From positions 1 through 12,708 of IMG/VR virus record IMGVR_UViG_2548876945_000010: DNA of 12,708 nt; one strand, 5' to 3'. The notes under the pieces were generated by a model that was given only the letters and a program-made list of their open reading frames with translations, was not told the DNA's origin and made no database searches. Source of the stretch: a virus. Its lineage: Duplodnaviria; Heunggongvirae; Uroviricota; Caudoviricetes. The position numbers and the translations under genes were made by a program. Numbering within the stretch: position 1 is the stretch's first letter; the number at the start of each line of letters is the position of its first letter. Shown piece by piece: positions 1 to 12,708 of the stretch.

Positions 1-996
1 TTATGGACGCATTATGGACATTCCTGACACCGGGTTAAGAGTCACAGCATCTTGTAAGAAATCCGGTGCAAAGTGTGCGTAGGTCATAGTTTGCTGAATG
101 TTAGAATGACCCAGGATGCGCTGCAATGTGATTATGTTACCTCCATTCATTATAAAATGTGTGGCAAATGTATGCCTCAAAACATGTACTGCTTGTCCGT
201 CAGGTAAATCGGGTTTTACTTCCCTGAGAGCGTTACGCACTTTGTAGTAACTGGCATTAAAAAGCCTGCCTGAATTTTTGGTCTTGATCCGTTTAATCAG
301 GTCCTGCGAAACGGGAATTGTCCTGCGTTTTCCGTTTTTAGTTTTCATAAACGTAACCATCTGGTTAATGATGTGTTCAGCTTTTAAATTAGACACTTCA
401 CTCCAGCGTCCACCAGTAGAAAGGCAGACCAGAGTTGCATTTAATTCATCACCATCAAGCATGGATAACAGCCGCGTAATCTCTTCACTGGACAAAAAAG
501 CCATTTCCGTAACAGCTTCACGTAACCGTTTAATCTCACGGAACGGGTTGTGGGAGTGGTATTCACCGGCGTCAATTAACTTGGTGAACATCCCGCTCAT
601 TATTGCCAGATGTCGATTTACGCTGGCTGGTTTTAGACCATCGTTCATCATTACAACGCGATAATCAGTTATCGTTTTCTTTGTTAGCTGGTCAGCTCTG
701 GACACTCCCATTTCTGCAAATTTGGCGATTATTGTCGTTAAACGCCCCCGTTCAATATCTCCACGCTCATGTGATTTTCCGTGATATATCCACCATCTAC
801 CTAACAACTCTGTAAGAGTTCGGCGGTCGGCTGGTTTCTCCAACCACTCTTTGTTGTGGTAGTTAACCAATACATGACGTTCGAATGCCTGAGCTTCACC
901 TTTAGTTTTAAATTTCCGCCTGATACGTTTTCCATCTGCACCCTGCGGTCTGACGTCCACTTCATAACGACCATCATCGAGCTTTTTAATAGACAT
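1..996 (-). CDS. int: tyrosine site-specific integrase (P2 Int-like)
   Basis: 331-aa ORF, ATG at 996..994, stop at 3..1. N-terminus MSIKKLDDGRYEVDVRP resembles P2-family integrases; C-terminal HVLRHTFATH ... LGHSNIQQTMTYAHF carries the His-x-x-Arg and catalytic Tyr motifs of tyrosine recombinases. GGAGGG Shine-Dalgarno lies upstream on the minus strand. Confidence 0.9.
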   Translation of the reverse strand: MSIKKLDDGRYEVDVRPQGADGKRIRRKFKTKGEAQAFERHVLVNYHNKEWLEKPADRRTLTELLGRWWIYHGKSHERGDIERGRLTTIIAKFAEMGVSRADQLTKKTITDYRVVMMNDGLKPASVNRHLAIMSGMFTKLIDAGEYHSHNPFREIKRLREAVTEMAFLSSEEITRLLSMLDGDELNATLVCLSTGGRWSEVSNLKAEHIINQMVTFMKTKNGKRRTIPVSQDLIKRIKTKNSGRLFNASYYKVRNALREVKPDLPDGQAVHVLRHTFATHFIMNGGNIITLQRILGHSNIQQTMTYAHFAPDFLQDAVTLNPVSGMSIMRP

Positions 997-1089
997 AAAG
1001 CCCTCCGATGACGCTGTTTACTTCTACTACTTGAAAATTAATGCAATTTTCTTTCGTACATTTACTACACACATATGCTGAATAAATCG

Positions 1090-1389
1090 TCAGCCAGTCT
1101 TCTGGTCTGAGTGGTGCAAGGTTGTTGAGTCTTGCCCAATGTGTGCGAGAGCCGGGGCTATTTGTCCAGCTGCTGGATCTGTTTCATCAAACATGAACCA
1201 GTCACGATACTTGCGAAAGCGTGGATGCTTAAACAGCTTCATACCTGCTTCCATAGGCATTTTTGATTTTCCTGATTCATATCCATGATATGTGTAGTAA
1301 TTAATTCCAATTAATTCAGCAAGTTCCTTAGTTTTAAGGCGTTCGGATTCACGGATGAGCTTTAGTTTCTCACTTTGTTCACTTGACAT
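1090..1389 (-). CDS. C: immunity repressor (P2 C-like)
   Basis: The ORF track starts at a TTG (1407); the in-frame ATG at 1389 gives 99 aa (MSSEQSEKLKLIRESERLKTKELAELIG...GQIAPALAHIGQ...HSDQKTG). Length and C-terminal GQIAPALAH..GQ....HSGQKTG pattern match my recollection of P2 C; it has an N-terminal HTH-like segment and a TATAAT/GGAG upstream. Confidence 0.8.
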   Translation of the reverse strand: MSSEQSEKLKLIRESERLKTKELAELIGINYYTYHGYESGKSKMPMEAGMKLFKHPRFRKYRDWFMFDETDPAAGQIAPALAHIGQDSTTLHHSDQKTG

Positions 1390-1497
1390 AATTTTGCTAA
1401 TCTCCAATTATATTGCTACTTGGCAATTTGTGATTCACTCAAAAAGGCTCTAGATGGCTCCAGTTGGTGAATCGCAAATCTTATGGAGGATAGCAAA
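1390..1497. promoter_or_regulatory. early genetic switch region between divergent C and cox (expected Pe/Pc promoters and C operators)
   Basis: About 100-bp AT-rich spacer between divergent repressor and cox ORFs. A perfect TATAAT reads on the minus strand at 1412..1407 upstream of the C start; on the plus strand TTGCTA (1394..1399) and TACTTG (1417..1422) are 17 bp apart. Operators were not identified with confidence. Confidence 0.4.
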
Positions 1498-1854
1498 GTG
1501 ACGACAAATGTAGAAATTTCTTGTCCAACTAGCGATGAGGCAAGTTTCGAAAATGAAGCCAAACGTAAAAGCATTCAGATTTCAGAGCGCCCATCTGATT
1601 TGCTGTCGAAAGAAGGTTTTGCTCTTTACATCGGTAAGACACCACGCGCGGTGGCTGAAATGGCTAAAGCAGGAAAGCTGCCAGCCTTCTACATGACAGA
1701 CCCATTAAAACCAAGAGGGAAAGCTGAATTATGGATTAATCGCCGTGAGTGGGACAAGTACGCAGCCCAACTGGTTGATGAAGCTCCGACAGAATGGCAT
1801 GACTGGAAAAATCGCATTAGTTACAGCAAATCAAGACATGGCCGTGCGGCTTAA
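1498..1854 (+). CDS. cox: Cox-like excisionase/transcriptional regulator with N-terminal extension
   Basis: Core FALYIGKTPRAVAEMAKAGKLPAFYMTDP resembles the P2 Cox HTH region (..GKLPVIDMTDP..). The ORF track starts at ATG 1483, but GGAGGA at 1485..1490 sits 7 nt before an in-frame GTG at 1498, so I call 1498 as start; 1483 remains possible. Confidence 0.6.
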   Translation: MTTNVEISCPTSDEASFENEAKRKSIQISERPSDLLSKEGFALYIGKTPRAVAEMAKAGKLPAFYMTDPLKPRGKAELWINRREWDKYAAQLVDEAPTEWHDWKNRISYSKSRHGRAA

Positions 1855-1864
1855 GGTGGAAAGG

Positions 1865-2035
1865 ATGAACGAGCCTCGTTGTATTGCTCAGTTATTGCGT
1901 AACGAAAGCCCCAGGGCGATTGACTTCACCATCACCCACGGTAAGGGGCGTAAGGGAATCATTATCCGCACCAAAAAACAGAGTCCGTTAAAAAAGGCTC
2001 TGACCTTTCTGAAAAGCCGGAGGGTATGGAAATGA
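1865..2035 (+). CDS. small hypothetical early protein (position of P2 orf78)
   Basis: ATG at 1865 preceded by AAGGTGGAAAGG, 56 aa; its stop TGA (2033..2035) overlaps the ATG at 2032 of the next gene (ATGA coupling). Call is positional only. Confidence 0.35.
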   Translation: MNEPRCIAQLLRNESPRAIDFTITHGKGRKGIIIRTKKQSPLKKALTFLKSRRVWK

Positions 2036-2532
2036 CAGTGATGACGCTCAATCTCGTTGAAAAACAGCCAGCAGCTATGCGCCGGATAATTGGCAAGCAT
2101 CTTGCCGTCCCTCGCTGGCAGGATACATGTGATTATTATAATCAGATGATGGAGCGCGAACGGCTAACGGTTTGCTTTCATGCACAGTTAAAACAGCGTC
2201 ACGCAACGATGCGTTTTGAAGAAATGAACGACGTCGAACGTGAACGACTGGTATGTGCAATTGATGAATTGCGTGGGGCATTCTCAAAACGCCGTCAGGT
2301 CGGTGCAAGTGAGTATGCATATATTAGCTTTTTAACTGTCAGTCAGCGCCGTACTTTATTTATGCATGCCGGATTGACTGAAAAAGAATTCAACCAGCCA
2401 TACTGGCGAATTAATGAAGAATCATGTTACTGGCGTGATGCCTTATTCCGTGCATTACGTGAATTATTCAGCCTGTTTGAGTATGCACCGACAATTCTGA
2501 CGTCGGTAAAACCAGAGCAATATCTGCATTAA
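2032..2532 (+). CDS. P2 gpB-like early replication protein (putative)
   Basis: About 166-aa ORF in the position and of the size of P2 B; GGAGGG lies 8 nt upstream of ATG 2032 (track start 2026 is too close to the SD). Function assigned by synteny and length only. Confidence 0.5.
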   Translation: MTVMTLNLVEKQPAAMRRIIGKHLAVPRWQDTCDYYNQMMERERLTVCFHAQLKQRHATMRFEEMNDVERERLVCAIDELRGAFSKRRQVGASEYAYISFLTVSQRRTLFMHAGLTEKEFNQPYWRINEESCYWRDALFRALRELFSLFEYAPTILTSVKPEQYLH

Positions 2533-2595
2533 GTAATTAACCAGAGTTTTTAACGCACTTAATTGTGCGGGGCTTCTTTTTGCCTGGAGAAAGTC

Positions 2596-2820
2596 ATGCA
2601 TACAGTTTCTGAAAATCAGTGCGGTAAATACGCATTACTGCTGCAACAGGCCAGAACCGAAGCACAGGCCGACGCAGCAACGCGCTTTTCTTCTCATCTT
2701 GACGCCATGATTCGCCACATCACAAAGGCGGAGTTATCCCGCGTAGAGATAGTCGAGCTGCTCAGTCAGGAGTCGGAAAAATTTCACAATATCGGATTGT
2801 CTCGCGGGGAGGTGCTTTGA
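2596..2820 (+). CDS. hypothetical early protein (position of P2 orf80)
   Basis: Track start 2563 is a TTG; ATG at 2596 is preceded by GGAGAAA. 74 aa, no recognisable motif. Confidence 0.5.
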
Positions 2821-3122
2821 TGTCCTGTTCTCGTTCAGTTGTATTACTGAATAACGCCTTAAAAATCACCGTTATGAAAAATGGCGATCTATCTCTTATT
2901 CAACTTGGTCTTGATAAAGAAAAACGCGAAATAACTGAGTCTGTTATCGCGATTTATCAGAACGAATTAAATCTCCTGTCTGATGTGGTCAATTTACTTG
3001 TTAAACGCGCTGTATTTCACAAGCAAATCTCCTCCGTGGATGAACTGACGAAATTAACGACAGAAATTGCCAGCTATTGCGCTGATGAATTTAAAAAACT
3101 TAACGACAAAAGGAGCTGGTAA
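2820..3122 (+). CDS. hypothetical early protein (position of P2 orf81)
   Basis: ATG 2820 overlaps the preceding stop (TGATG) with GAGGTG upstream; 100 aa; stop overlaps the next start (TAATG). Confidence 0.5.
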   Translation: MSCSRSVVLLNNALKITVMKNGDLSLIQLGLDKEKREITESVIAIYQNELNLLSDVVNLLVKRAVFHKQISSVDELTKLTTEIASYCADEFKKLNDKRSW

Positions 3123-3346
3123 TGCCGGACAACGTAGATTTTATTCAGGAACAACAGGCTGAATTACTGGAGCGTCAGATTAACGCGGCAAGGGTAAAAC
3201 ATTGCGGTGCTTCTGCGCTGGTTTGCGAAGAGTGTGACGCGCCAATACCTGCTGCCCGTCGTGCGGCTTATCCGTCAGCCACGCGTTGTGTTTCCTGCCA
3301 GTCAGTCTTTGAAGCAAAAAACAAGCATTACCGGAGAATGGCATGA
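3122..3346 (+). CDS. TraR/DksA-family C4 zinc-finger protein (position of P2 orf82)
   Basis: 74 aa with CxxC-(17)-CxxC (VCEECDAPIPAARRAAYPSATRCVSC) after a helical N-terminus, typical of the phage TraR/DksA zinc-finger family; AGGAG SD upstream. Confidence 0.75.
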   Translation: MPDNVDFIQEQQAELLERQINAARVKHCGASALVCEECDAPIPAARRAAYPSATRCVSCQSVFEAKNKHYRRMA

Positions 3347-3618
3347 GTATTCGTATCGAAATTGGCGAACGTTATGTCGTTACCAGTGACAGCTTTCAGT
3401 TTATTCTCCACGAGAAAAAGAGAGCGGAAAGCGGTAAAAACGCCGGTCAGGAATGGCTGGCGGTGGTTGGTTATTACCCGAAATTAAGCCAGCTCGTTTC
3501 CGGCCTGATGCATCACGATATTCTGACCGGAAGCGCAAAGTCTTTTGCTGATTTAAACGCGCAGGTTGAGCAACTCAGCAGGCGTTGTTCAGAGGCTTTT
3601 GGCTCATATGGCCGTTAA
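3343..3618 (+). CDS. hypothetical early protein (position of P2 orf83)
   Basis: ATG 3343 overlaps the previous stop (ATGA); 91 aa; 3' end overlaps the start of gene A. Confidence 0.5.
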   Translation: MSIRIEIGERYVVTSDSFQFILHEKKRAESGKNAGQEWLAVVGYYPKLSQLVSGLMHHDILTGSAKSFADLNAQVEQLSRRCSEAFGSYGR

Positions 3619-5779
3619 AGCCTCCGGGCGTTTTGTCCCTCCGTCAGCATTTGCCGCAGGCACCGGTAAGACGTTTGCCGGTGCTTATGCATGGAACGCG
3701 CCACGCGAGGCTGTCGGGCGCGAAAGACCCCTTACACGTGATGAGATGCGTCAGGTGCAAGGTGTTTTATCCACGATTAACCGCCTGCCTTACTTTTTGC
3801 GCTCGCTGTTTACTTCACGCTATGACTACATCCGGCGCAATAAAAGCCCGGTACACGGGTTTTATTTCCTCACATCCACTTTTCAGCGTCGTTTATGGCC
3901 GCGCATTGAGCGCGTGAATCAGCGCCATGAAATGAACACCGACGCGTCGTTGCTGTTTCTGGCAGAGCGCGACCAGTATGCGCGCCTGCCGGGGATGAAT
4001 GACAAGGAGCTGAAAAAGTTTGCCGCCCGTATCTCATCACAGCTTTTCATGATGTATGAGGAACTCTGCGATGCCTGGGTGGATGCGCATGGCGAGAAAG
4101 AATCGCTGTTTACGGATGATGCGCAGGCTCACCTCTATGGTCATGTTGCTGGCGCTGCACGTGCTTTCAATATTTCCCCGCTTTACTGGAAAAAATACCG
4201 TAAAGGACAGATGACCACGAGGCAGGCATATTCTGCAATTGCTCGTCTGTTTAACGATGAGTGGTGGACTCATCAGCTTAAAGGCCAGCGTATGCGCTGG
4301 CATGAAGCGTTACTGATAGCTGTCGGGGAGGTCAATAAAGACCGTTCTCCTTATGCCAGTAAACACGCCATTCGTGATGTGCGTGCGCGCCGCCAGGCAA
4401 ATCTGGAATTTCTTAAATCGTGTGACCTTGAAAACAGGGAAACCGGCGAGCGCATCGACCTTATCAGTAAGGTGATGGGCAGTATTTCTAATCCTGAAAT
4501 TCGCCGGATGGAGCTGATGAACACCATTGCCGGTATTGAGCGTTACGCCGCCGCAGAGGGTGATGTGGGGATGTTTATCACGCTGACCGCGCCGTCAAAG
4601 TATCACCCGACACGTCAGGTCAGAAAAGGCGAAAGTAAAACCGTTCAGCTTAATCACGGCTGGAACGATGAGGCATTTAATCCAAAGGATGCGCAGCGTT
4701 ATCTCTGCCGCATCTGGAGCCTGATGCGCACGGCATTCAAGGATAATGATTTACAGGTCTACGGTTTGCGTGTCGTCGAGCCACACCACGACGGAACGCC
4801 GCACTGGCATATGATGCTTTTTTGTAATCCACGCCAGCGTAACCAGATTATTGAAATCATGCGTCGCTACGCGCTCAAAGAGGATGGCGACGAAAGAGGA
4901 GCTGCGCGAAACCGTTTTCAGGCAAAACACCTTAACCGGGGCGGTGCTGCGGGGTATATCGCAAAATACATCTCAAAAAACATCGATGGCTATGCACTGG
5001 ATGGTCAGCTCGATAATGATACCGGCAGGCCGCTGAAAGATACTGCTGCGGCTGTTACCGCATGGGCGTCAACGTGGCGAATTCCGCAATTTAAAACGAT
5101 TGGCCTGCCGACAATGGGGGCTTACCGTGAACTACGCAAATTGCCTCGCGGCGTCAGTATTGCTGATGAGTTTGACGAACGCGTCGAGGCTGCTCGCGCT
5201 GCCGCAGACAGTGGTGATTTTGCGTTGTATATCAGCGCGCAGGGTGGGGCAAATGTCCCGCGCGATTGTCAGACTGTCAGGGTTGCCCGTAGCCCGTCGG
5301 ATGACGTTAACGAGTACGAGGAAGAAGTCGAGAGAGTGGTCGGCATTTACGCGCCGCATCTCGGCGCGCGTCATATTCATATCACCAGAACGACGGACTG
5401 GCGCATTGTGCCGAAAGTTCCGGTCGTTGAGCCTTTGACTTTAAAAAGCGGCATCGCCGCGCCTCGGAGTCCTGTCAATAACTGTGGAAAGTTCACCGGC
5501 GGTGACGTTCCGGTTATGCACCCTACACCGTCTGAGCATGCCGCAGCGGTGTTAAATCTGGTTGATAGTGGTGTTATCGGATGGGATGACCCGGAAGTTG
5601 TGACGGTGCTCAGGAGTGCATTAAAACATGGTGCACCGAGACCGAATTGGCAACAAAGAAACTGCGAACCATTAAAACCGTACCAGATAGCGCCATCAGG
5701 GCGGATGACAAAGGCTGAACGTTCGCAGATTCCACGCATCCATTTCGAGCTGGCACTAATTGGTAAAACCTATCAATAG
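3608..5779 (+). CDS. A: rolling-circle replication initiator endonuclease (P2 gpA-like, HUH superfamily)
   Basis: Large ORF; I place the start at ATG 3608 (MAVKASGRFVPP..., as I recall P2 A) rather than the track ATG 3566. It has an HUH-like motif PHWHMMLF (His codons 4802..4810) and the paired-tyrosine motif GYIAKYISK (Tyr codons 4955..4957 and 4967..4969), similar to phiX174 gpA YxxKY. Confidence 0.85.
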   Translation: MAVKASGRFVPPSAFAAGTGKTFAGAYAWNAPREAVGRERPLTRDEMRQVQGVLSTINRLPYFLRSLFTSRYDYIRRNKSPVHGFYFLTSTFQRRLWPRIERVNQRHEMNTDASLLFLAERDQYARLPGMNDKELKKFAARISSQLFMMYEELCDAWVDAHGEKESLFTDDAQAHLYGHVAGAARAFNISPLYWKKYRKGQMTTRQAYSAIARLFNDEWWTHQLKGQRMRWHEALLIAVGEVNKDRSPYASKHAIRDVRARRQANLEFLKSCDLENRETGERIDLISKVMGSISNPEIRRMELMNTIAGIERYAAAEGDVGMFITLTAPSKYHPTRQVRKGESKTVQLNHGWNDEAFNPKDAQRYLCRIWSLMRTAFKDNDLQVYGLRVVEPHHDGTPHWHMMLFCNPRQRNQIIEIMRRYALKEDGDERGAARNRFQAKHLNRGGAAGYIAKYISKNIDGYALDGQLDNDTGRPLKDTAAAVTAWASTWRIPQFKTIGLPTMGAYRELRKLPRGVSIADEFDERVEAARAAADSGDFALYISAQGGANVPRDCQTVRVARSPSDDVNEYEEEVERVVGIYAPHLGARHIHITRTTDWRIVPKVPVVEPLTLKSGIAAPRSPVNNCGKFTGGDVPVMHPTPSEHAAAVLNLVDSGVIGWDDPEVVTVLRSALKHGAPRPNWQQRNCEPLKPYQIAPSGRMTKAERSQIPRIHFELALIGKTYQ

Positions 5780-5882
5780 TGATTTAATGAAATTTCGGAG
5801 TCATAAATATTGTGTATTTAACTAGATGATTGCAATATAAGTGCTTATTATTTATGCGATTATAGCCATAACGGAGCTGAGT

Positions 5883-6812
5883 ATGAGTGTTGCAAGGCAT
5901 CATCATTTTTTATCCCAATGTTATTTGAAAGGGTTTACAAGTAATGGGGGGAAAAAATCAAAATTAACTGTAATAGATTTAAAGGAGCGCAAAACCTTTG
6001 AGAGTAATACTCGCAATGTCGGGGGGGTTAGAGATTTCAACCGATTAGAATTGGATGGAGTTGACCCAAACTATCTCGAGAGTTCTCTTGCAGAGTTTGA
6101 AGGCAGTGTCGCTACTCATTTAAGAAAACTTGAGGAGGGGGGCGAGTTTTCAGGCGAAACCAAAGATGTTATTCTGGAGTTTATTTCCTTATTGGCAATA
6201 CGTACGCCTGCTCAGCGAGAACATTTATCATCTCCATTGAAACAAATAGCAAAGTTTATCATGAAATCCTCAGTTAGTTCGGCTGAGCGTTGGGACGATT
6301 GCAAATTAGCTTATGAGAAAGAAATGGGTGAGTCTTTGCCATATGATCTCGCTTACGAAAAAATTAAAAATTTTGTGGATGGGGATAATTTCGAAATCAA
6401 TGTAATCAGAGAGTTCATGATAGATATGGAAATGAAATGTGTACCTGTTATCACCAAGTTGTTGCATCAACGCAACTGGTCTCTTATGACCATATCTGAT
6501 GGGCAAGGGTCATTTATAACTTCAGATAACCCAGTTTGCTTAATGTGGACTAATCCTGAATTAGCACGAGGCCCTTATTCCCCCGGGTTTGGTGTAAAAG
6601 ACACTTTAGTTTTGTTCCCAGTATCAAAAAACCTTCTTTTGGCGGGCGAGTTTGATGGTCATGAGGGTGTATTCAGTTGTAATGAGGAGCAGGCTGCGGT
6701 CTTCAATACTTCAGTCATTCGGCATACCGCAGAAAGAATATTTTCATCTAATGATAATTTCAAATTTTTAGACTCATCTAAAAAAATGAAGCAAGGCAAA
6801 AGCCTGGTTTGA
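5883..6812 (+). CDS. AT-rich cargo gene at the P2 tin/old hotspot; DUF4238-like candidate anti-phage defence protein
   Basis: 309-aa ORF from ATG 5883 (GGAG upstream; the track GTG at 5841 is less likely). N-terminus MSVARHHHFLSQCYLKGF fits the HHxxxQxYLKxF signature I associate with DUF4238. Strongly AT-rich unlike the flanking phage genes, and located between the A stop and cos. Confidence 0.65.
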   Translation: MSVARHHHFLSQCYLKGFTSNGGKKSKLTVIDLKERKTFESNTRNVGGVRDFNRLELDGVDPNYLESSLAEFEGSVATHLRKLEEGGEFSGETKDVILEFISLLAIRTPAQREHLSSPLKQIAKFIMKSSVSSAERWDDCKLAYEKEMGESLPYDLAYEKIKNFVDGDNFEINVIREFMIDMEMKCVPVITKLLHQRNWSLMTISDGQGSFITSDNPVCLMWTNPELARGPYSPGFGVKDTLVLFPVSKNLLLAGEFDGHEGVFSCNEEQAAVFNTSVIRHTAERIFSSNDNFKFLDSSKKMKQGKSLV

Positions 6813-6949
6813 TAGCGGTTTTTCTATGATTTTACTAGGAGAATTCTACCCTTAATCAGTGTGTTTAAAATGATTAATTGTCATAACATTTTTTCATTTT
6901 TAGGTGTGCCTAGAAATGCATTCAATTGCATGCGTTTTCCTCCCCTGTT

Positions 6950-7093
6950 GCGTCTGAGCGCCACCAGTGCCGGCGCGCCTCCGGTGTATTCGTGCACCTG
7001 CATTAAAACCGACCCATAAAGCGGGCAGGCGAGGCGGGGAAAGCACTGCGCGCTGGCGGTGGTGCTGATTTTATTTTTTCAGCGTCTGAGCGC
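6950..7093. repeat. 12-bp direct repeat GCGTCTGAGCGC flanking cos (6950..6961 and 7082..7093)
   Basis: Exact 12-bp copies lie 67 bp upstream and 36 bp downstream of the cohesive-end sequence; possible terminase recognition elements. Confidence 0.4.
7028..7046. other. cos: cos cohesive-end site (P2-type 19-nt GGCGAGGCGGGGAAAGCAC)
   Basis: Exact match to the P2 19-nt cohesive end as I recall it, in the expected place about 170 bp from the 3' end of portal gene Q. Confidence 0.75.
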
Positions 7094-7188
7094 GTCGTGG
7101 CGGCGTTTAGATTTTGCGCCGGGGCGTTGCTGTGTCTGCGGGCTGTTTTGTGCGGTGGTGAGCGTGTGAGGGCGTGATGACTGGGTGT

Positions 7189-7210
7189 AAAAAAGCCGCC
7201 CGCAGGCGGC
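7189..7210 (-). terminator. intrinsic terminator downstream of Q (end of leftward P-Q operon)
   Basis: On the minus strand: GCCGCC-TGCG-GGCGGC hairpin (7210..7195) followed by TTTTTT (7194..7189), starting 5 nt after the Q stop codon. Confidence 0.6.
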
Positions 7211-7215
7211 GATGT

Positions 7216-8250
7216 TCAGCCGTTGTCAGTGTCCAGTGAGTAGTTTTTAAAGCGGATGACCTCCTGACCGAGCCAGCCGTTTATCTCGCGGATCCTGTCC
7301 TGTAACGGGATAAGCTCATTGCGGACAAAGACCTTTGCCACTTTCTCAATATCACCCAGCGACCCGACGTTCTCCGGCTTGCCGCCCATCAACTGAAAGG
7401 GGATGCGGTGCGCGTCCAGCAGGTCAGCGGCGCTGGCTTTTTTGATATTAAAAAAATCGTCCTTCGTTGCCACTTCACTGAGCGGGATAATTTTAATGCC
7501 GTCGGCTTTTCCCTGCGGGGCATAGAGAAACAGATTTTTAAAGTTGTTGCGGCCTTTCGACTTGACCATGTTTTCGCGAAGCATTTCGATATCGTTGCGA
7601 TCCTGCACGGCATCAGTGACGTACATGATGTATCCGGCATGTGCGCCGTTTTCGTAATACTTGCGGCGGAACAGCGTGGCTGACTCATTCAGCCAGGCAG
7701 AGTTAAGGGCGCTGAGATATTCCGGCATGCCGTACAGCTCCTGATTAATATCCGGCTCCAGCAGATGAAACACGGAGCCGGGCGCGAAAGGTGTCGGCTC
7801 GTTGAAGGACGGCACCCACCAGTAAACATCCTCCTCCACGCCACGGCGGGTATATTTTGCCGGTGAGGTTTCCAGTCTGATGACCTTACCGGTGGTGCTG
7901 TAACGCTTTTCCAGAAACGCATTACCGAACACCAGAAAATCCAGCGCAAAGCGGCTGAAATCCTGCTGGGAAAGCCACGGATGCGGGATAAATGTCGAGG
8001 CCAGAATATTACGTTTGACGTAAATCGGTGAGCTGTGATGCACGGCAGCACGCAGGCTTTTTGCCAGACCGGTAAAGCTGACCGGTGGCTCATACCATCT
8101 GCCGTTACTGATGCACTCGACGTAATCCAGAATGTCACGGCGGTCGAGTACCGGCACCGGCTCGCCAAAGGTGAATGCTTCCATTTTCGGGGCGTTGGCG
8201 GTCATTTTTTTTGCCGCAGGTTGCGGTGTTTTCCCTTTTTTCTTGCTCAT
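7216..8250 (-). CDS. Q: portal protein (P2 gpQ-like)
   Basis: 344-aa ORF, ATG at 8250..8248 with GGAG upstream, stop 7218..7216. Length equals P2 Q and it sits next to cos and the terminase gene; its start overlaps the P stop (TGATG). Confidence 0.9.
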   Translation of the reverse strand: MSKKKGKTPQPAAKKMTANAPKMEAFTFGEPVPVLDRRDILDYVECISNGRWYEPPVSFTGLAKSLRAAVHHSSPIYVKRNILASTFIPHPWLSQQDFSRFALDFLVFGNAFLEKRYSTTGKVIRLETSPAKYTRRGVEEDVYWWVPSFNEPTPFAPGSVFHLLEPDINQELYGMPEYLSALNSAWLNESATLFRRKYYENGAHAGYIMYVTDAVQDRNDIEMLRENMVKSKGRNNFKNLFLYAPQGKADGIKIIPLSEVATKDDFFNIKKASAADLLDAHRIPFQLMGGKPENVGSLGDIEKVAKVFVRNELIPLQDRIREINGWLGQEVIRFKNYSLDTDNG

Positions 8251-9311
8251 CAGTAAAACTCCAGAATGGTGGATGTCAGCGGGGTGCTGATACCGGCGGT
8301 GAGTGGCTCATTTAACAGGGCGTGCATGGTCGCCCAGGCGAGGTCGGCGTGGCTGGCTTCCTCGCTGCGGCTGGCCTCATAGGTGGCGCTGCGCCCGCTG
8401 CTGGTCATGGTCTTGCGGATAGCCATAAACGAGCTGGTGATGTCGGTGGCGCTGACGTCATATTCCAGACAGCCACGGCGGATAACGTCTTTTGCCTTGA
8501 GCACCATTGCGGTTTTCATTTCCGGCGTGTAGCGGATATCACGCGCGGCGGGATAGAACGAGCGCACGAGCTGGAACACGCCGACACCGAGGCCGGTGGC
8601 ATCAATACCGATGTATTCGACGTTATATTTTTCGGTGAGTTTGCGGATGGATTCCGCCTGGGTGGCAAAGTCCATACCTTTCCACTGGTGACGCTCAAGT
8701 ATTCTGAATTTGCCACCGGCCACCACCGGCGGTGCCAGTACCACGCATCCGGCGCTGTCGCCACGGTGTGACGGGTCGTAACCAATCCATACCGGTCGGG
8801 AGCCGAACGGATTTGCGGCAAACGGCGCATAGTCTTCCCATTCTTCCAGCGTGTCGACCATGCAGCGTTGCAGCTCCTCGAACGGGAATACCGATGCCTT
8901 GTCATCAACAAATTCACACATGAACAGGTTTTTAAAATCGTCGGCGCTGTTTTCGCGTTTAAGCTGCTCAATGTCGAACAATGTGCAGCCACCTTTCAGG
9001 GCGTCCTCAATGGTGACAATCTGCCGCCACTGGCCGTCCGCACAGAGAAGACCTCCGGCAAGGGCGTTATGACTGACGTCGATTTCCACGCGTTCGGCGG
9101 CGCTGGCGCGTCCCCGGTTGAACAGTTCACCTGACCAGAACGGGTAGGCGTCGTGCGCCAGCGTGGACGGGGTGGAGAAATAGGTCGAGCGCAGGTGACT
9201 CTGTGAGGCCATACCTGATGCCACCTTACGCAGTACCTGAAAAGCCGCGCTGCATCGTGAGTCAAATCTGATGAAGACCTTTGCGCTACAGGGCGACACG
9301 CTTGACGCCAT
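8250..9311 (-). CDS. P: terminase large subunit (P2 gpP-like), C-terminal portion only; N-terminal ATPase region apparently missing
   Basis: 353-aa ORF directly upstream of and coupled to Q. Contains VWIGYDPSHRGDSAGCVVL, like the start of a terminase nuclease domain; no Walker A (GxxxxGKT/S) is present. P2 P is about 590 aa as I recall, and the first ~15-20 codons of this ORF overlap the X gene on the opposite strand so are probably not P-derived. Confidence 0.6.
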   Translation of the reverse strand: MASSVSPCSAKVFIRFDSRCSAAFQVLRKVASGMASQSHLRSTYFSTPSTLAHDAYPFWSGELFNRGRASAAERVEIDVSHNALAGGLLCADGQWRQIVTIEDALKGGCTLFDIEQLKRENSADDFKNLFMCEFVDDKASVFPFEELQRCMVDTLEEWEDYAPFAANPFGSRPVWIGYDPSHRGDSAGCVVLAPPVVAGGKFRILERHQWKGMDFATQAESIRKLTEKYNVEYIGIDATGLGVGVFQLVRSFYPAARDIRYTPEMKTAMVLKAKDVIRRGCLEYDVSATDITSSFMAIRKTMTSSGRSATYEASRSEEASHADLAWATMHALLNEPLTAGISTPLTSTILEFY

Positions 9312-9474
9312 TTGTGTCCGGTATTACGGGCGCACTGAGGGCGTGGTTGAGACCGTGCTCGCCGCAAATCCGGGACTGGCTGAACTGGGTGCGGTGCTGC
9401 CACACGGCACCGCCGTCGAACTGCCCGACGTTCAGACCGCGCCCGTGGCTGAAACTGTCAATCTGTGGGAGTAA
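9271..9474 (+). CDS. X: tail protein X (P2 gpX-like, LysM-like)
   Basis: 67 aa, MKTFALQGDTLDAICVRYYGRTEGVVETVLAANPGL..., matching P2 X in length and sequence as recalled; immediately precedes the holin. Confidence 0.8.
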   Translation: MKTFALQGDTLDAICVRYYGRTEGVVETVLAANPGLAELGAVLPHGTAVELPDVQTAPVAETVNLWE

Positions 9475-9477
9475 CGC

Positions 9478-9759
9478 ATGACAGCAGAAGAAAAAAGCGT
9501 CCTGTCGCTTTTCATGATTGGGGTGCTGATTGTTGTCGGCAAGGTGCTTGCCGGTGGTGAACCCATCACCCCGCGTCTGTTTATCGGGCGCATGTTGCTC
9601 GGTGGTTTTGTCTCGATGGTTGCCGGTGTTGTTCTGGTGCAGTTTCCTGACCTGTCACTGCCTGCGGTGTGCGGTATCGGCTCCATGCTGGGTATCGCCG
9701 GTTATCAGGTGATTGAGATTGCCATTCAGCGCCGCTTTAAGGGTAGGGGGAAACCGTAA
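9478..9759 (+). CDS. Y: holin (P2 gpY-like)
   Basis: 93 aa with hydrophobic transmembrane segments (LSLFMIGVLIVVGKVLAGG, LLGGFVSMVAGVVLV, GIGSMLGIAGY) and a charged C-terminal tail; stop overlaps the K start (TAATG). Confidence 0.8.
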   Translation: MTAEEKSVLSLFMIGVLIVVGKVLAGGEPITPRLFIGRMLLGGFVSMVAGVVLVQFPDLSLPAVCGIGSMLGIAGYQVIEIAIQRRFKGRGKP

Positions 9760-10256
9760 TGCCGGTTATTAACACGCATCAGAATATCGCCGCCTTTCTC
9801 GACATGCTGGCCGTGTCCGAAGGGACGGCAAACCATCCGCTGACGAAAAACCGGGGCTATGACGTGATAGTCACCGGACTGGACGGGAAGCCGGAAATTT
9901 TCACCGACTACAGTGACCACCCGTTCGCACATGGCCGACCGGCGAAGGTGTTTAACCGTCGCGGTGAAAAATCCACGGCCTCCGGTCGCTATCAGCAGCT
10001 TTACCTGTTCTGGCCGCATTACCGCAAACAGCTTGCCCTGCCGGATTTCAGTCCGTTGTCACAGGACAGACTTGCCATTCAGTTGATCCGCGAACGCGGT
10101 GCACTGGATGACATCCGGGCGGGACGCATTGAGCGAGCCATTTCACGCTGTCGCAATATCTGGGCGTCCCTGCCGGGTGCCGGTTACGGTCAGCGTGAGC
10201 ATTCACTGGAAAAACTGGTCACCGTCTGGCGTACCGCTGGCGGCGTACCGGCTTAA
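9759..10256 (+). CDS. K: endolysin (P2 gpK, lambda R-like lytic transglycosylase/lysozyme)
   Basis: 165 aa; FLDMLAVSEGT...GYDVIV...FTDYSDHP...SGRYQ...GALDDIRAGRIERAISRCRNIWASLPGAGYGQ closely parallels lambda R (FLDMLAWSEGTD...IWASLPGAGYGQ) as I recall it. Confidence 0.9.
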   Translation: MPVINTHQNIAAFLDMLAVSEGTANHPLTKNRGYDVIVTGLDGKPEIFTDYSDHPFAHGRPAKVFNRRGEKSTASGRYQQLYLFWPHYRKQLALPDFSPLSQDRLAIQLIRERGALDDIRAGRIERAISRCRNIWASLPGAGYGQREHSLEKLVTVWRTAGGVPA

Positions 10257-10270
10257 ACGGAGTAAACACC

Positions 10271-10696
10271 ATGAAGAAATTATCCCTTTCACTGATGCTG
10301 AACGTGTCGCTGGCGCTGATGCTGGCACTGTCCCTGATTTACCCGCAGAGCGTGGCCGTCAATTTTGTCGCCGCCTGGGCGATTCTGGCGACGGTTATCT
10401 GTGTGGTTGCCGGTGGTGTCGGCGTGTATGCCACTGAGTATGTGCTGGAACGCTACGGGCGGGAGCTGCCGCCGGAATCGCTGGCCGTGAAGATTGTCAC
10501 GTCGCTGTTTTTGCAGCCGGTGCCGTGGCGCAGACGGGCGGTGGCTCTGGTGGTGATGGTGGCGACGTTTATCTCGCTGGTCGCTGCCGGGTGGATTTTT
10601 ACCGCGCTGATTTATCTCGTGGCGTCGGTGTTCTTCCGGCTGATACGTACGGCCTGCCGTCAGCGTTTTGAGGGGCGGGAACCATGTCAAAGCTGA
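10271..10696 (+). CDS. lysA: LysA-like membrane protein (lysis timing)
   Basis: 141 aa with several hydrophobic helices; position and length match P2 lysA. Confidence 0.7.
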   Translation: MKKLSLSLMLNVSLALMLALSLIYPQSVAVNFVAAWAILATVICVVAGGVGVYATEYVLERYGRELPPESLAVKIVTSLFLQPVPWRRRAVALVVMVATFISLVAAGWIFTALIYLVASVFFRLIRTACRQRFEGREPCQS

Positions 10697-11109
10697 TGAT
10701 TGTGATGGTTGTGCTGTTATCGCTGGCGGTGGCGGGGCTGTTTCTGGTGAAGCATGAAAACGCCAGCCTGCGCGCCTCGCTGGACAGGGCGAACAACGTC
10801 GCCAGCGGGCAGCAGACGACCATCACCATGCTGCAAAATCAGCTTCATGTTGCCATCACCAGGGCAGACAAAAACGAGCTGGCGCAGGTGGCACTGCGTC
10901 AGGAACTGGAGAACGCCGCGAAGCGTGAAGCACAGCGCGAGAAAACCATCACGAGGTTACTTAATGAAAACGAAGATTTTCGCCGCTGGTACGGTGCTGA
11001 CCTGCCTGATGCTGTGCGCCGGTTGCACCAGCGCCCCGCCTGCACTGACGCCAGTGATTGTCGCCAACGCCTGCCCGAAAGTGAGCCTTTGCCCGATGCC
11101 GGGCAGTGA
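10684..11109 (+). CDS. lysB: LysB, Rz-like inner-membrane spanin
   Basis: 141 aa; N-terminal TM helix (LMIVMVVLLSLAVAGLFLV) followed by a charged, predicted coiled-coil region; contains the embedded +1-frame lysC gene. Confidence 0.75.
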   Translation: MSKLMIVMVVLLSLAVAGLFLVKHENASLRASLDRANNVASGQQTTITMLQNQLHVAITRADKNELAQVALRQELENAAKREAQREKTITRLLNENEDFRRWYGADLPDAVRRLHQRPACTDASDCRQRLPESEPLPDAGQ

Positions 11110-11152
11110 CCCGCAGACGAACGGCGATTTAAGTGCCGATAAGCGGAATTAA
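10964..11152 (+). CDS. lysC: LysC, Rz1-like outer-membrane lipoprotein spanin
   Basis: 62-aa ORF starting inside lysB in another frame; signal peptide plus lipobox (MKTKIFAAGTVLTCLMLCAGC) and a Pro-rich mature part. Confidence 0.7.
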   Translation: MKTKIFAAGTVLTCLMLCAGCTSAPPALTPVIVANACPKVSLCPMPGSDPQTNGDLSADKRN

Positions 11153-11414
11153 AACGGCCAGCGTGACGGCTTCTGATTCTGTTACTGCCACGGTGCCGGT
11201 GGTCATGGTGAAAGCATCAACCCGCGTCACCCTGGACACACCGGAGGTGGTCTGCACCAACAGGCTGATTACCGGCACGCTGGAAGTGCAGAAGGGCGGG
11301 ACGATGCGCGGCAACATTGAACACACCGGCGGTGAACTCTCATCAAACGGTAAGGTACTGCATACCCATAAACACCCCGGTGACAGTGGCGGCACAACAG
11401 GGGGACCTCTATGA
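11153..11414 (+). pseudogene. V: remnant of baseplate spike gene V (C-terminal fragment only)
   Basis: Only about 260 bp separate lysC from W, where P2 has R, S and V (about 1.5 kb). The ORF ends ...NGKVLHTHKHPGDSGGTTGGPL, which I tentatively recognise as a gpV-type His-rich C-terminal apex, and its stop overlaps the W start (ATGA). Confidence 0.4.
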
Positions 11415-11758
11415 CAGCGCGTTATCTCGGAATGAATCGCAGTGATGGCCTGACTGTCACTGACCTTGAGCATATCAGCCAGAGTATCGGCGATATCCTG
11501 CGCACACCGGTCGGCTCACGGGTGATGCGTCGTGATTACGGCTCGTTGCTGGCGTCAATGATTGACCAGCCGCAGACCCCGGCGCTTGAGTTGCAGATTA
11601 AAGTCGCCTGTTACATGGCAGTGCTGAAATGGGAACCCCGCGTCACCCTGTCATCCGTCACCACGGCGCGCAGTTTTGACGGGCGAATGACGGTCACGTT
11701 AACCGGCCAGCACAACGACACCGGCCAGCCACTTTCGTTAACCATCCCTGTGAGTTGA
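11411..11758 (+). CDS. W: baseplate wedge protein W (gp25-like)
   Basis: 115 aa (same as P2 W), MTARYLGMNRSDGLTVTDLEHISQSIGDILRTPVGSRVMRRDYGS..., a GPW/gp25-family pattern. Confidence 0.85.
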   Translation: MTARYLGMNRSDGLTVTDLEHISQSIGDILRTPVGSRVMRRDYGSLLASMIDQPQTPALELQIKVACYMAVLKWEPRVTLSSVTTARSFDGRMTVTLTGQHNDTGQPLSLTIPVS

Positions 11759-11762
11759 AACC

Positions 11763-11897
11763 ATGCCGATTATCGACCTGAACCAGCTACCCGCACCGGA
11801 TGTGGTCGAGGAGCTGGACTTTGAAACCATTCTTGCTGAACGCAAGGCGACACTGATTTCCCTTTACCGAATACAGCGTCGTGACCGGAGGCTCTGA
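11763..11897 (+). pseudogene. J: baseplate protein J, internally deleted/truncated (44 codons)
   Basis: ATG 11763 encodes MPIIDLNQLPAPDVVEELDFETILAERKATLISLY... (J-like N-terminus) but stops at 11895..11897, overlapping the I start (TGATG); P2 J is about 302 aa as recalled. Below the ORF-track length cutoff, found by reading. Confidence 0.5.
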
Positions 11898-12508
11898 TGA
11901 GTGATTCGCGACTGCTGCCGACCGGCTCATCACCGCTTGAAGTCGCTGCCGCAAAAGCCTGTGCGGAAATTGAAAAAACGCCGGTCAGTATTCGTGAGCC
12001 GTGGAACCCGGACACCTGCCCGGCAAATCTGCTGCCGTGGCTGGCGTGGTCATTTTCGGTTGACCGCTGGGATGATAAGTGGCCGGAAGCGACAAAACGC
12101 GCTGTTATCCGCGATGCGTATTTCATTCACTGCCATAAGGGCACTATAGGCGCAATCCGGCGTGTGGTGGAGCCGCTCGGCTATCTGATTGAGGTGAGGG
12201 AGTGGTGGCAGCTCAACGAGGAGCCGGGGACGTTCCGGATCGTTGTTGGCGTGCTTGAGCAGGGTATTACCGAGGAAATGTATCAGGAGCTGGAGCGCCT
12301 CGTTGCTGATGCAAAACCGGCAAGCCGCCATCTGACGGGACTGGCTATCAGTTTAAGTACAACCGGCAACATTTTTGCCGGTGCGGAATGCTATCACGGT
12401 GACGCCCTGACGGTTTATCCCTACACCCCGGAGGCCATTATTGTCGGAGGGGATTATTTCCCGGCCTCGGCCATTCATTTAATTGATAACCTGAGAGTAA
12501 ACGCATGA
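11897..12508 (+). CDS. I: baseplate assembly protein I
   Basis: 203-aa ORF, MSDSRLLPTGSSPLEVAAAKACAEIEKTPVSIREPWNPDTCPANLLPWLAWSFSVDRWDD..., in the P2 I position; stop overlaps the H start (ATGA). Confidence 0.8.
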   Translation: MSDSRLLPTGSSPLEVAAAKACAEIEKTPVSIREPWNPDTCPANLLPWLAWSFSVDRWDDKWPEATKRAVIRDAYFIHCHKGTIGAIRRVVEPLGYLIEVREWWQLNEEPGTFRIVVGVLEQGITEEMYQELERLVADAKPASRHLTGLAISLSTTGNIFAGAECYHGDALTVYPYTPEAIIVGGDYFPASAIHLIDNLRVNA

Positions 12509-12708
12509 CAGTGAAATACTACGCCATTCTGACTAATCAGGGCGCAGCACGGCTGGCTAACGCGACGATGCTCGGCAGTAAGCTGAATCTGACGCAAATG
12601 GCCGTTGGTGATGCGAATGGTGTCTTGCCGACACCAGACCCGGCACAGACAAAACTGATTAACCAGAAACGCATCGCGCTGAACCGCCCCGGGAATCCTG
12701 GAGACTAA
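12505..12708 (+). CDS. H: tail fibre protein H, N-terminal segment only (ORF stops after 67 codons at the window end)
   Basis: N-terminus ...TQMAVGDANGVLPTPDPAQTKLI resembles the conserved tail-fibre N-terminal domain (P2 H ...TTMAVGDGGGKLPVPDAGQTGLI). P2 H is about 669 aa, but here a TAA at 12706..12708 ends the frame. Confidence 0.6.
   Translation: MTVKYYAILTNQGAARLANATMLGSKLNLTQMAVGDANGVLPTPDPAQTKLINQKRIALNRPGNPGD

Follow-up and report, generated by a model that had tools for sequence, protein, structure and literature searches.

The window analysed here, a stretch of DNA of 12,708 nucleotides, contains a large-terminase gene of reduced length that abuts the gene for tail protein X. This raises the questions whether a P2-like phage has really lost its head module, how the loss came about, and what kind of element is left. 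The original prediction, made from the sequence alone, held that a head-module deletion had fused the C-terminal part of P to X. A comparison with the intact prophage of E. coli GPEC1209 bears this out and locates the junction between positions 9243 and 9244. The same comparison revealed that the earlier interpretation was incomplete rather than wrong, as two more deletions, an IS629 insertion and the predicted loss of a divergent late-promoter region had been missed. We are highly confident that the window belongs to a P2-like (Peduovirus) prophage, namely its left two-thirds, and that this prophage is in the process of inactivation by structural lesions.

Gene layout and closest relatives

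The ORF map and Pfam scans revealed a P2-type gene layout across the window (Table 1). The cos sequence lies between the cargo hotspot and Q, as expected of a P2-like element, and the linear phage records begin at a cos base (query position 29 corresponds to record position 1). In a megablast comparison with phage records, 96-98% identity was found to numerous P2-like phages from Escherichia, Yersinia and Salmonella; within the stretch from 7000 to 10000 no single phage match spans more than 75%.

The closest intact relative is the GPEC1209 prophage (NZ_CM142785.1; locus L002), which is located between pflA and pflB. It matches positions 1-12679 of the window at 99.9% identity in four blocks that together span 19.9 kb, and the genes outside the lesions have the same lengths in both. 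The order int-C-cox-B-A-cargo-cos-Q-P ... X-Y-K-lysA-lysB ... W-J-I-H is common to the window, this prophage and the phages Escherichia phage 899, vB_YpM_22 and P2. Synteny, including the divergent Q-P pair and the rightward late genes, and a nucleotide identity of 96-99.9% thus agree with an assignment to the P2-like phages (Peduovirus). Unlike the GPEC1209 prophage, the window lacks segments of 4267, 2186 and 767 bp and carries an IS629 in H. Judging from its relatives, the element probably resides at the pflA/pflB site as well; the host flanks fall outside the window.

The integrase itself is widespread: an identical 331-aa protein is encoded in more than 13,000 blocks of the collection, and pflA adjoins it in all ten of the places listed. 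The cargo between A and Q varies among these ten pflA loci and includes a reverse transcriptase, SIR2, FRG, DUF2971, a metallo-beta-lactamase fold and others.

Table 1. Positions of genes, remnants and lesions in the window (L002 coordinates refer to the intact GPEC1209 prophage; a slash marks a junction)
Feature	Position	Strand	Details or basis
Integrase gene int	1-996	-	ORF map, Pfam
Repressor C and cox, then replication genes B and A	A at 3608-5779		ORF map, Pfam
DUF4238 cargo gene	5841-6812	+	Between A and Q, adjoins cos; PF14022
cos, GGCGAGGCGGGGAAAGCAC	7028-7046	+	P2-type 19-nt cohesive-end sequence, intact
Portal gene Q	7216-8250	-	Full length, 344 aa; Pfam, comparison with intact relative
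P', terminase remnant	8250-9243 (353-aa ORF 8250-9311)	-	BLASTP and Pfam
23 non-terminase N-terminal codons of the 353-aa ORF	9244-9311	-	Antisense to 3' end of L and 5' end of X
L remnant	9244-9271	+	Last 28 nt, including the TGA stop that overlaps the X start codon; L002 16511-16538
Gene X (tail protein X), intact	9271-9474	+	Phage_tail_X 1-60/60; 67/67 identity
Holin Y, endolysin K, lysA, lysB; then spike fragment, W, I, start of tail-fibre gene H	Downstream of X		
lysC', truncated Rz1-like spanin gene	11009-11152	+	Coordinates derived from L002 18276-18521 and the junction
Deletion 2	11141/11142		2186 bp, L002 18409-20594; microhomology TA (11140-11141)
V', 3' part of baseplate spike gene	11142-11414	+	Residues 122-211 only; Pfam, comparison with L002
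J', remnant of baseplate gene J	11763-11897	+	44 codons (intact J 302 aa)
Deletion 3, inside J	11865-11868		767 bp, frame shifted; microhomology TACC
H', start of tail-fibre gene H	12505-12679	+	First 58 codons; Phage_tail_fib 1-56/150
IS629, left end	12680-12708	+	29 nt; insertion at 12679/12680; window ends inside the IS

The head-gene deletion and the terminase remnant

With respect to the GPEC1209 prophage, 4267 bp (L002 12244-16510) are missing from the window at the head junction. In the intact prophage the sequence reads ...CAGTACCTGAAAA/TTCGGG on the P side of the break and ...CCAGGACAA/GCCGCGCTG on the L side, and the window reads ...CAGTACCTGAAAAGCCGCGCTG across the junction. The search for microhomology suggested with the original prediction uncovered a 2-nt overlap, AA at 9242-9243, that is common to the P side (GAAAA/TTC) and the L side (GACAA/GCC). 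Homology to P2-like phages stops at 9243 on the Q/P side and starts at about 9239-9244 on the L/X side. The lost DNA comprises codons 1-260 of P, the 173-bp P/O intergenic region, the genes O, N and M and most of L. This single deletion joins codon 261 of P to the final 28 nt of L, and its ends share only AA. Considering all three deletions, the shared stretches of 2, 2 and 4 nt are only weakly above chance, and illegitimate recombination is presumed for each of them. By our own estimate only the 4-nt overlap clearly exceeds chance.

The expected absence of O, N, M and L was found to hold for O, N and M, whereas L has left a 28-nt stub. More specifically, the scaffold O, capsid N and small terminase M of phage 899 gave no match in the window in tblastn searches (E>0.8), and the head-completion protein L matched only with its last ~10 residues (L residues 158-169). 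Nor were homologues of O, N, M or L encountered elsewhere, in either the window or the locus L005, whose 20 kb extend from B into D. Of the genes that make up a full head module (Q, P, O, N, M and L), Q and the part for residues 261-590 of gpP alone remain.

The P ORF had been described as 353 aa long instead of about 590 aa, devoid of the N-terminal part and of a Walker A motif, and this description proved accurate. In a BLASTP comparison with the 590-aa gpP of the GPEC1209 prophage, residues 24-353 of the ORF were identical to gpP 261-590 (330/330), and only this part of the terminase aligned. P' covers the C-terminal end of the ATPase domain and the RNaseH-like nuclease domain. The deleted residues 1-260 hold the Terminase_5/HTH (DNA-binding) region, the P-loop-like KSRQIGAT, which includes the Walker A-like SRQIGAT, and the Walker B motif LYVDE; the break point lies eight residues past the Walker B Glu. 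The Pfam profiles gave the same picture, as the match to Terminase_6N begins only at profile position 110 of 215 and Terminase_6C is matched over 1-154/155 (E = 1.4e-47). Thus, of the components of a functional large terminase, the Walker A/P-loop and the Walker B with its catalytic Glu are missing and the nuclease domain is present. The loss of the ATPase centre of the terminase, together with that of O, N and M, supports the earlier claim that the element is unable to build or fill capsids; the consequence of the deletion would be that no heads are formed and no DNA is packaged.

As had been noted before, P' abuts X and the first codons of the ORF overlap X on the opposite strand. These codons are antisense to L and X and do not derive from the terminase, and the 353-aa ORF is best read as a by-product of the deletion with an accidental extension, not as a new protein. 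Public gene callers give a 320-aa ORF (start at 9212, with AAGGTGG before it) more commonly than the 353-aa call. The proper label for either ORF is terminase pseudogene fragment, not terminase.

Lesions in the lysis and tail genes and presumed loss of late promoters

The junctions of the other two deletions and of the insertion were determined by reading the sequences directly. Deletion 2 took with it the 3' end of lysC, both tail-completion genes (R and S), a hypothetical ORF of 246 aa, the DNA upstream of V and codons 1-121 of V. The lysC remnant has 44 native codons followed by KRN and a stop, versus 81 aa in the intact gene. In V' Pfam recognizes Phage_spike and Apex only, and the Phage_base_V domain is missing. 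The last ORF of the window is a fusion of H and the IS. A full copy of the latter is found in L005 (10176-11485), where it measures 1310 bp, is flanked by a 3-bp CGC target duplication and is followed by the rest of H. Over its 1310 bp it is 97.9% identical to an element that carries the annotation IS3 family IS629, and it has the terminal TGAACCGCCCCGGG inverted ends, the two overlapping transposase ORFs (108 and 295 aa) and the 3-bp duplication of an IS629. The junction 20-mers of deletion 2, deletion 3 and the insertion occur in 7, 7 and 9 of the fetched loci, respectively.

Thus, of the full set of tail and baseplate genes (R, S, V, W, J, I, H, G and further genes), R and S are gone, V and J are truncated and H is split. 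Deletion 2, the J deletion and the IS629 in H would disable the tail, and the element as a whole is predicted to be incapable of making heads or tails. The order of events can be read in part from a 2308-bp contig (L010, ENA ERZ24910122), which has the IS629 in H, yet encodes a 301-aa J without the 767-bp deletion. This contig represents an intermediate state, and therefore the insertion of IS629 in H probably preceded the deletion in J.

In the large contig of GCA_949281605.1 (L029 6472-7389), codons 1-264 of A are joined to the last 41 codons of H via an ambiguous base, and the segment from A' to H' is found on a separate contig of 8.3 kb (L009). We rejected the A-H fusion ORF of L029 as a fifth rearrangement; given the ambiguous residue at the join, it is most likely a scaffolding join.

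The deletions may have had a second effect, on transcription. P2 has four Ogr-dependent late operons, namely P-Q, O-N-M-L-X-lysis-R-S, V-W-J-I-H-G and FI-FII-E-T-U-D. In line with the established biology of P2, two divergent late promoters that depend on Ogr, P_P and P_O, presumably lie in the P/O intergenic region. Deletion 1 would then remove the P_P/P_O region and deletion 2 would remove P_V, by which Q-P' and X-Y-K-lysA-lysB, and likewise V'-W-J'-I-H', would be left without promoters of their own. Both the promoter loss and the ensuing loss of expression are deduced from what is known of P2. The textbook Ogr site TGT-N12-ACA had no match in the window and, by eye, no exact match in the intact intergenic regions of L002. 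A shared 10-mer, TGTTGTGTCA, was used in its place, which constitutes weaker evidence. L002 contains two copies of this 10-mer and no others, at 13089-13098 (107 nt upstream of O) and at 20164-20173 (68 nt upstream of V), and it is probably part of the Ogr-dependent late-promoter sites. Both copies fall within the DNA that was deleted from the window, and the window has no copy of the 10-mer, even at one mismatch. In addition, no sigma-70-like promoter was predicted on either strand between 6800 and 9600.

Spread of the lesions and fate of the element

An identical 20-mer across the head junction was found in L004, L005, L007, L008 and L009, which stem from five or more independent public assemblies, and also in a metagenome contig from JGI (L034). 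Moreover, a look-up of the H'-IS fusion product returned 22 contigs that have the gene order of the window. They include a 5.0-Mb contig (GCA_974499335.1), contigs of GCA_965255975.1 and GCA_949281605.1, a Logan contig seen in nine samples and several ENA metagenome contigs. The head junction occurs in none of 5426 complete RefSeq E. coli genomes, and an exact-pattern scan gave no match in the GTDB species representatives or in IMG/VR. Because the junction is missing from the complete RefSeq E. coli genomes and the GTDB representatives, the carriers are taken to form a minor lineage that is represented by draft or other assemblies only.

This absence from complete and representative genomes could be taken to mean that the junction is an assembly artefact, caused by a chimeric read or a collapsed assembly, and that the real head module is intact. 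The same may be said of the quality of GCA_002110225.1. In this poor assembly the large contig has an N-run over the P' region (L006 5873-6795, ADJW01000018.1), and the junction, with the recorded 353-aa product, is on a separate contig of 1705 bp (L004). Nevertheless, the artefact deserves hardly any credence: misassembly is excluded because the identical junction recurs in independent assemblies from different sequencing projects and in a metagenome contig. The carriers moreover include the contig of 5 Mb and the Logan contig from nine samples, and the loci with the junction also have both other deletion junctions and the IS insertion with its proper target duplication. All four lesions are co-inherited in a set of related strains. 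The head deletion is genuine and heritable, and its occurrence is limited to a minor lineage.

Inactivation has proceeded entirely through structural events. Outside the lesions int, C, cox, B, A, cos, Q, the holin and endolysin genes and the DUF4238 gene are intact. Apart from Q and the lysis genes, these may well be the parts that the host can benefit from or tolerate. The loss of the head module is shared with the P2-derived, head-less R-type tailocins, and the holin, endolysin, W, I, sheath, tube, tape measure, U and D genes are still there. One could thus envisage a domesticated derivative that is kept for the production of R-pyocin-like, tail-only bacteriocin particles. However, an R-type tailocin has a full tail, baseplate and fibre set and a lysis cassette, whereas here the tail module is broken too: R and S are deleted, V is without residues 1-121, 44 codons are left of J, IS629 interrupts H and lysC is disrupted. 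Also lost is the DNA upstream of O and of V, from which P2 drives its lysis and baseplate operons. A tailocin was rejected once the alignment with the GPEC1209 prophage had shown two further deletions and the IS in the tail genes, and we regard it as extremely improbable.

With int, cox, B, A and cos intact and the DUF4238 defence cargo kept, the element might excise, replicate and be packaged via cos by a related helper, and so be a nascent defence-carrying satellite. There is a precedent in Sp13 of O157 Sakai, which is P2-like, lacks head and packaging genes and was observed in experiments to undergo excision, replication and packaging (PMC2669165). Nevertheless, the Pfam scans of the window ORFs gave no domain for functions specific to satellites, such as redirecting capsid size or derepressing a helper. 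Of the attributes of a P4-type satellite (capsid-size determination, helper derepression, an own primase and cos) only cos is present, the other genes being ordinary P2 genes. No helper is known in the carrier strains, and the lesion pattern, with its frameshift in J and IS in H, looks random and not streamlined. The estimated element size of ~24 kb (some 30 kb, less 7.2 kb, plus 1.3 kb) also speaks against packaging by a helper. Such a size is a poor fit to a P2-size head and to a P4-size head. We therefore rate helper dependence as quite unlikely.

It is also conceivable that the silencing itself was selected, in the sense that deletions were favoured over neutral decay for removing late promoters and thereby preventing lysis and late-gene toxicity. 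With two of the three deletions every copy of the motif TGTTGTGTCA, which lies upstream of the O and V operons, was lost. In addition, the inactivation was fast, because outside the lesions the sequence is still 99.9% identical to that of an intact phage. Independent P2-like prophages of E. coli carry other lesions in the 5' half of P, namely a deletion of the P N-terminus together with O and N that has a different breakpoint (L023 4205-4307) and an IS21-family element in P (L022 7491-9793). However, neither the J deletion nor the H insertion takes out a promoter, and the look-up that brought up these other lesions favoured truncated P. The look-up with the 320-aa P' is non-specific, as any frameshifted, IS-split or otherwise truncated P gives the same ORF. 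The 5' half of P may thus be a recurrent lesion target, or its lesions may reflect look-up bias. A further locus, L014, is a scrambled P2-like remnant. On balance we consider selected silencing rather doubtful. A more elaborate version is that of a stepwise-domesticated carrier of immunity and of the DUF4238 gene, in which the promoter-stripping deletions were selected and int, cox, A, B and cos would let it excise, replicate and enter the particles of a helper P2-like phage. It would make the element an early phage satellite, for which we see only a slim chance.

We conclude that the element exemplifies ordinary prophage decay. Its significance hardly extends beyond correct annotation, with immunity, integration and replication genes and the cargo gene staying intact, and the locus label should read defective P2-like prophage. 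The four shared lesions together with the intermediate provide a convenient clonal marker, and the element illustrates on a small scale how deletions and an IS insertion can inactivate a prophage fast.

The cargo protein matches the PADLOC model DUF4238-Pers (1.8e-219), and its gene can be considered a candidate anti-phage defence gene. Its position is like that of the systems of the P2 A-Q defence hotspot, with a single DUF4238 gene between A and Q that adjoins cos. Rousset et al. (bioRxiv 10.1101/2021.01.21.427644) report protection against T7 by a DUF4238 gene from the P2 hotspot. Unlike those systems, the allele described here is a candidate known from its sequence, and the prophage that carries it is defective.

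A comparable state of decay has been described for Sp13, a defective P2-like prophage of O157:H7 Sakai, which keeps the integration, regulation and replication functions and has no genes for forming heads or for packaging and lacks most of the morphogenetic genes (Asadulghani et al. 2009, PMC2669165). Sp13 is in addition mitomycin-inducible and carries a P4 epsilon-like gene (PMC2669165), whereas no epsilon-like gene was seen in the window. The two are separate elements with different lesions. Nevertheless, the element analysed here has, like Sp13, retained integration, regulation and replication genes and lost its head genes, and it joins the head-less defective P2-type prophages that are already known in kind.
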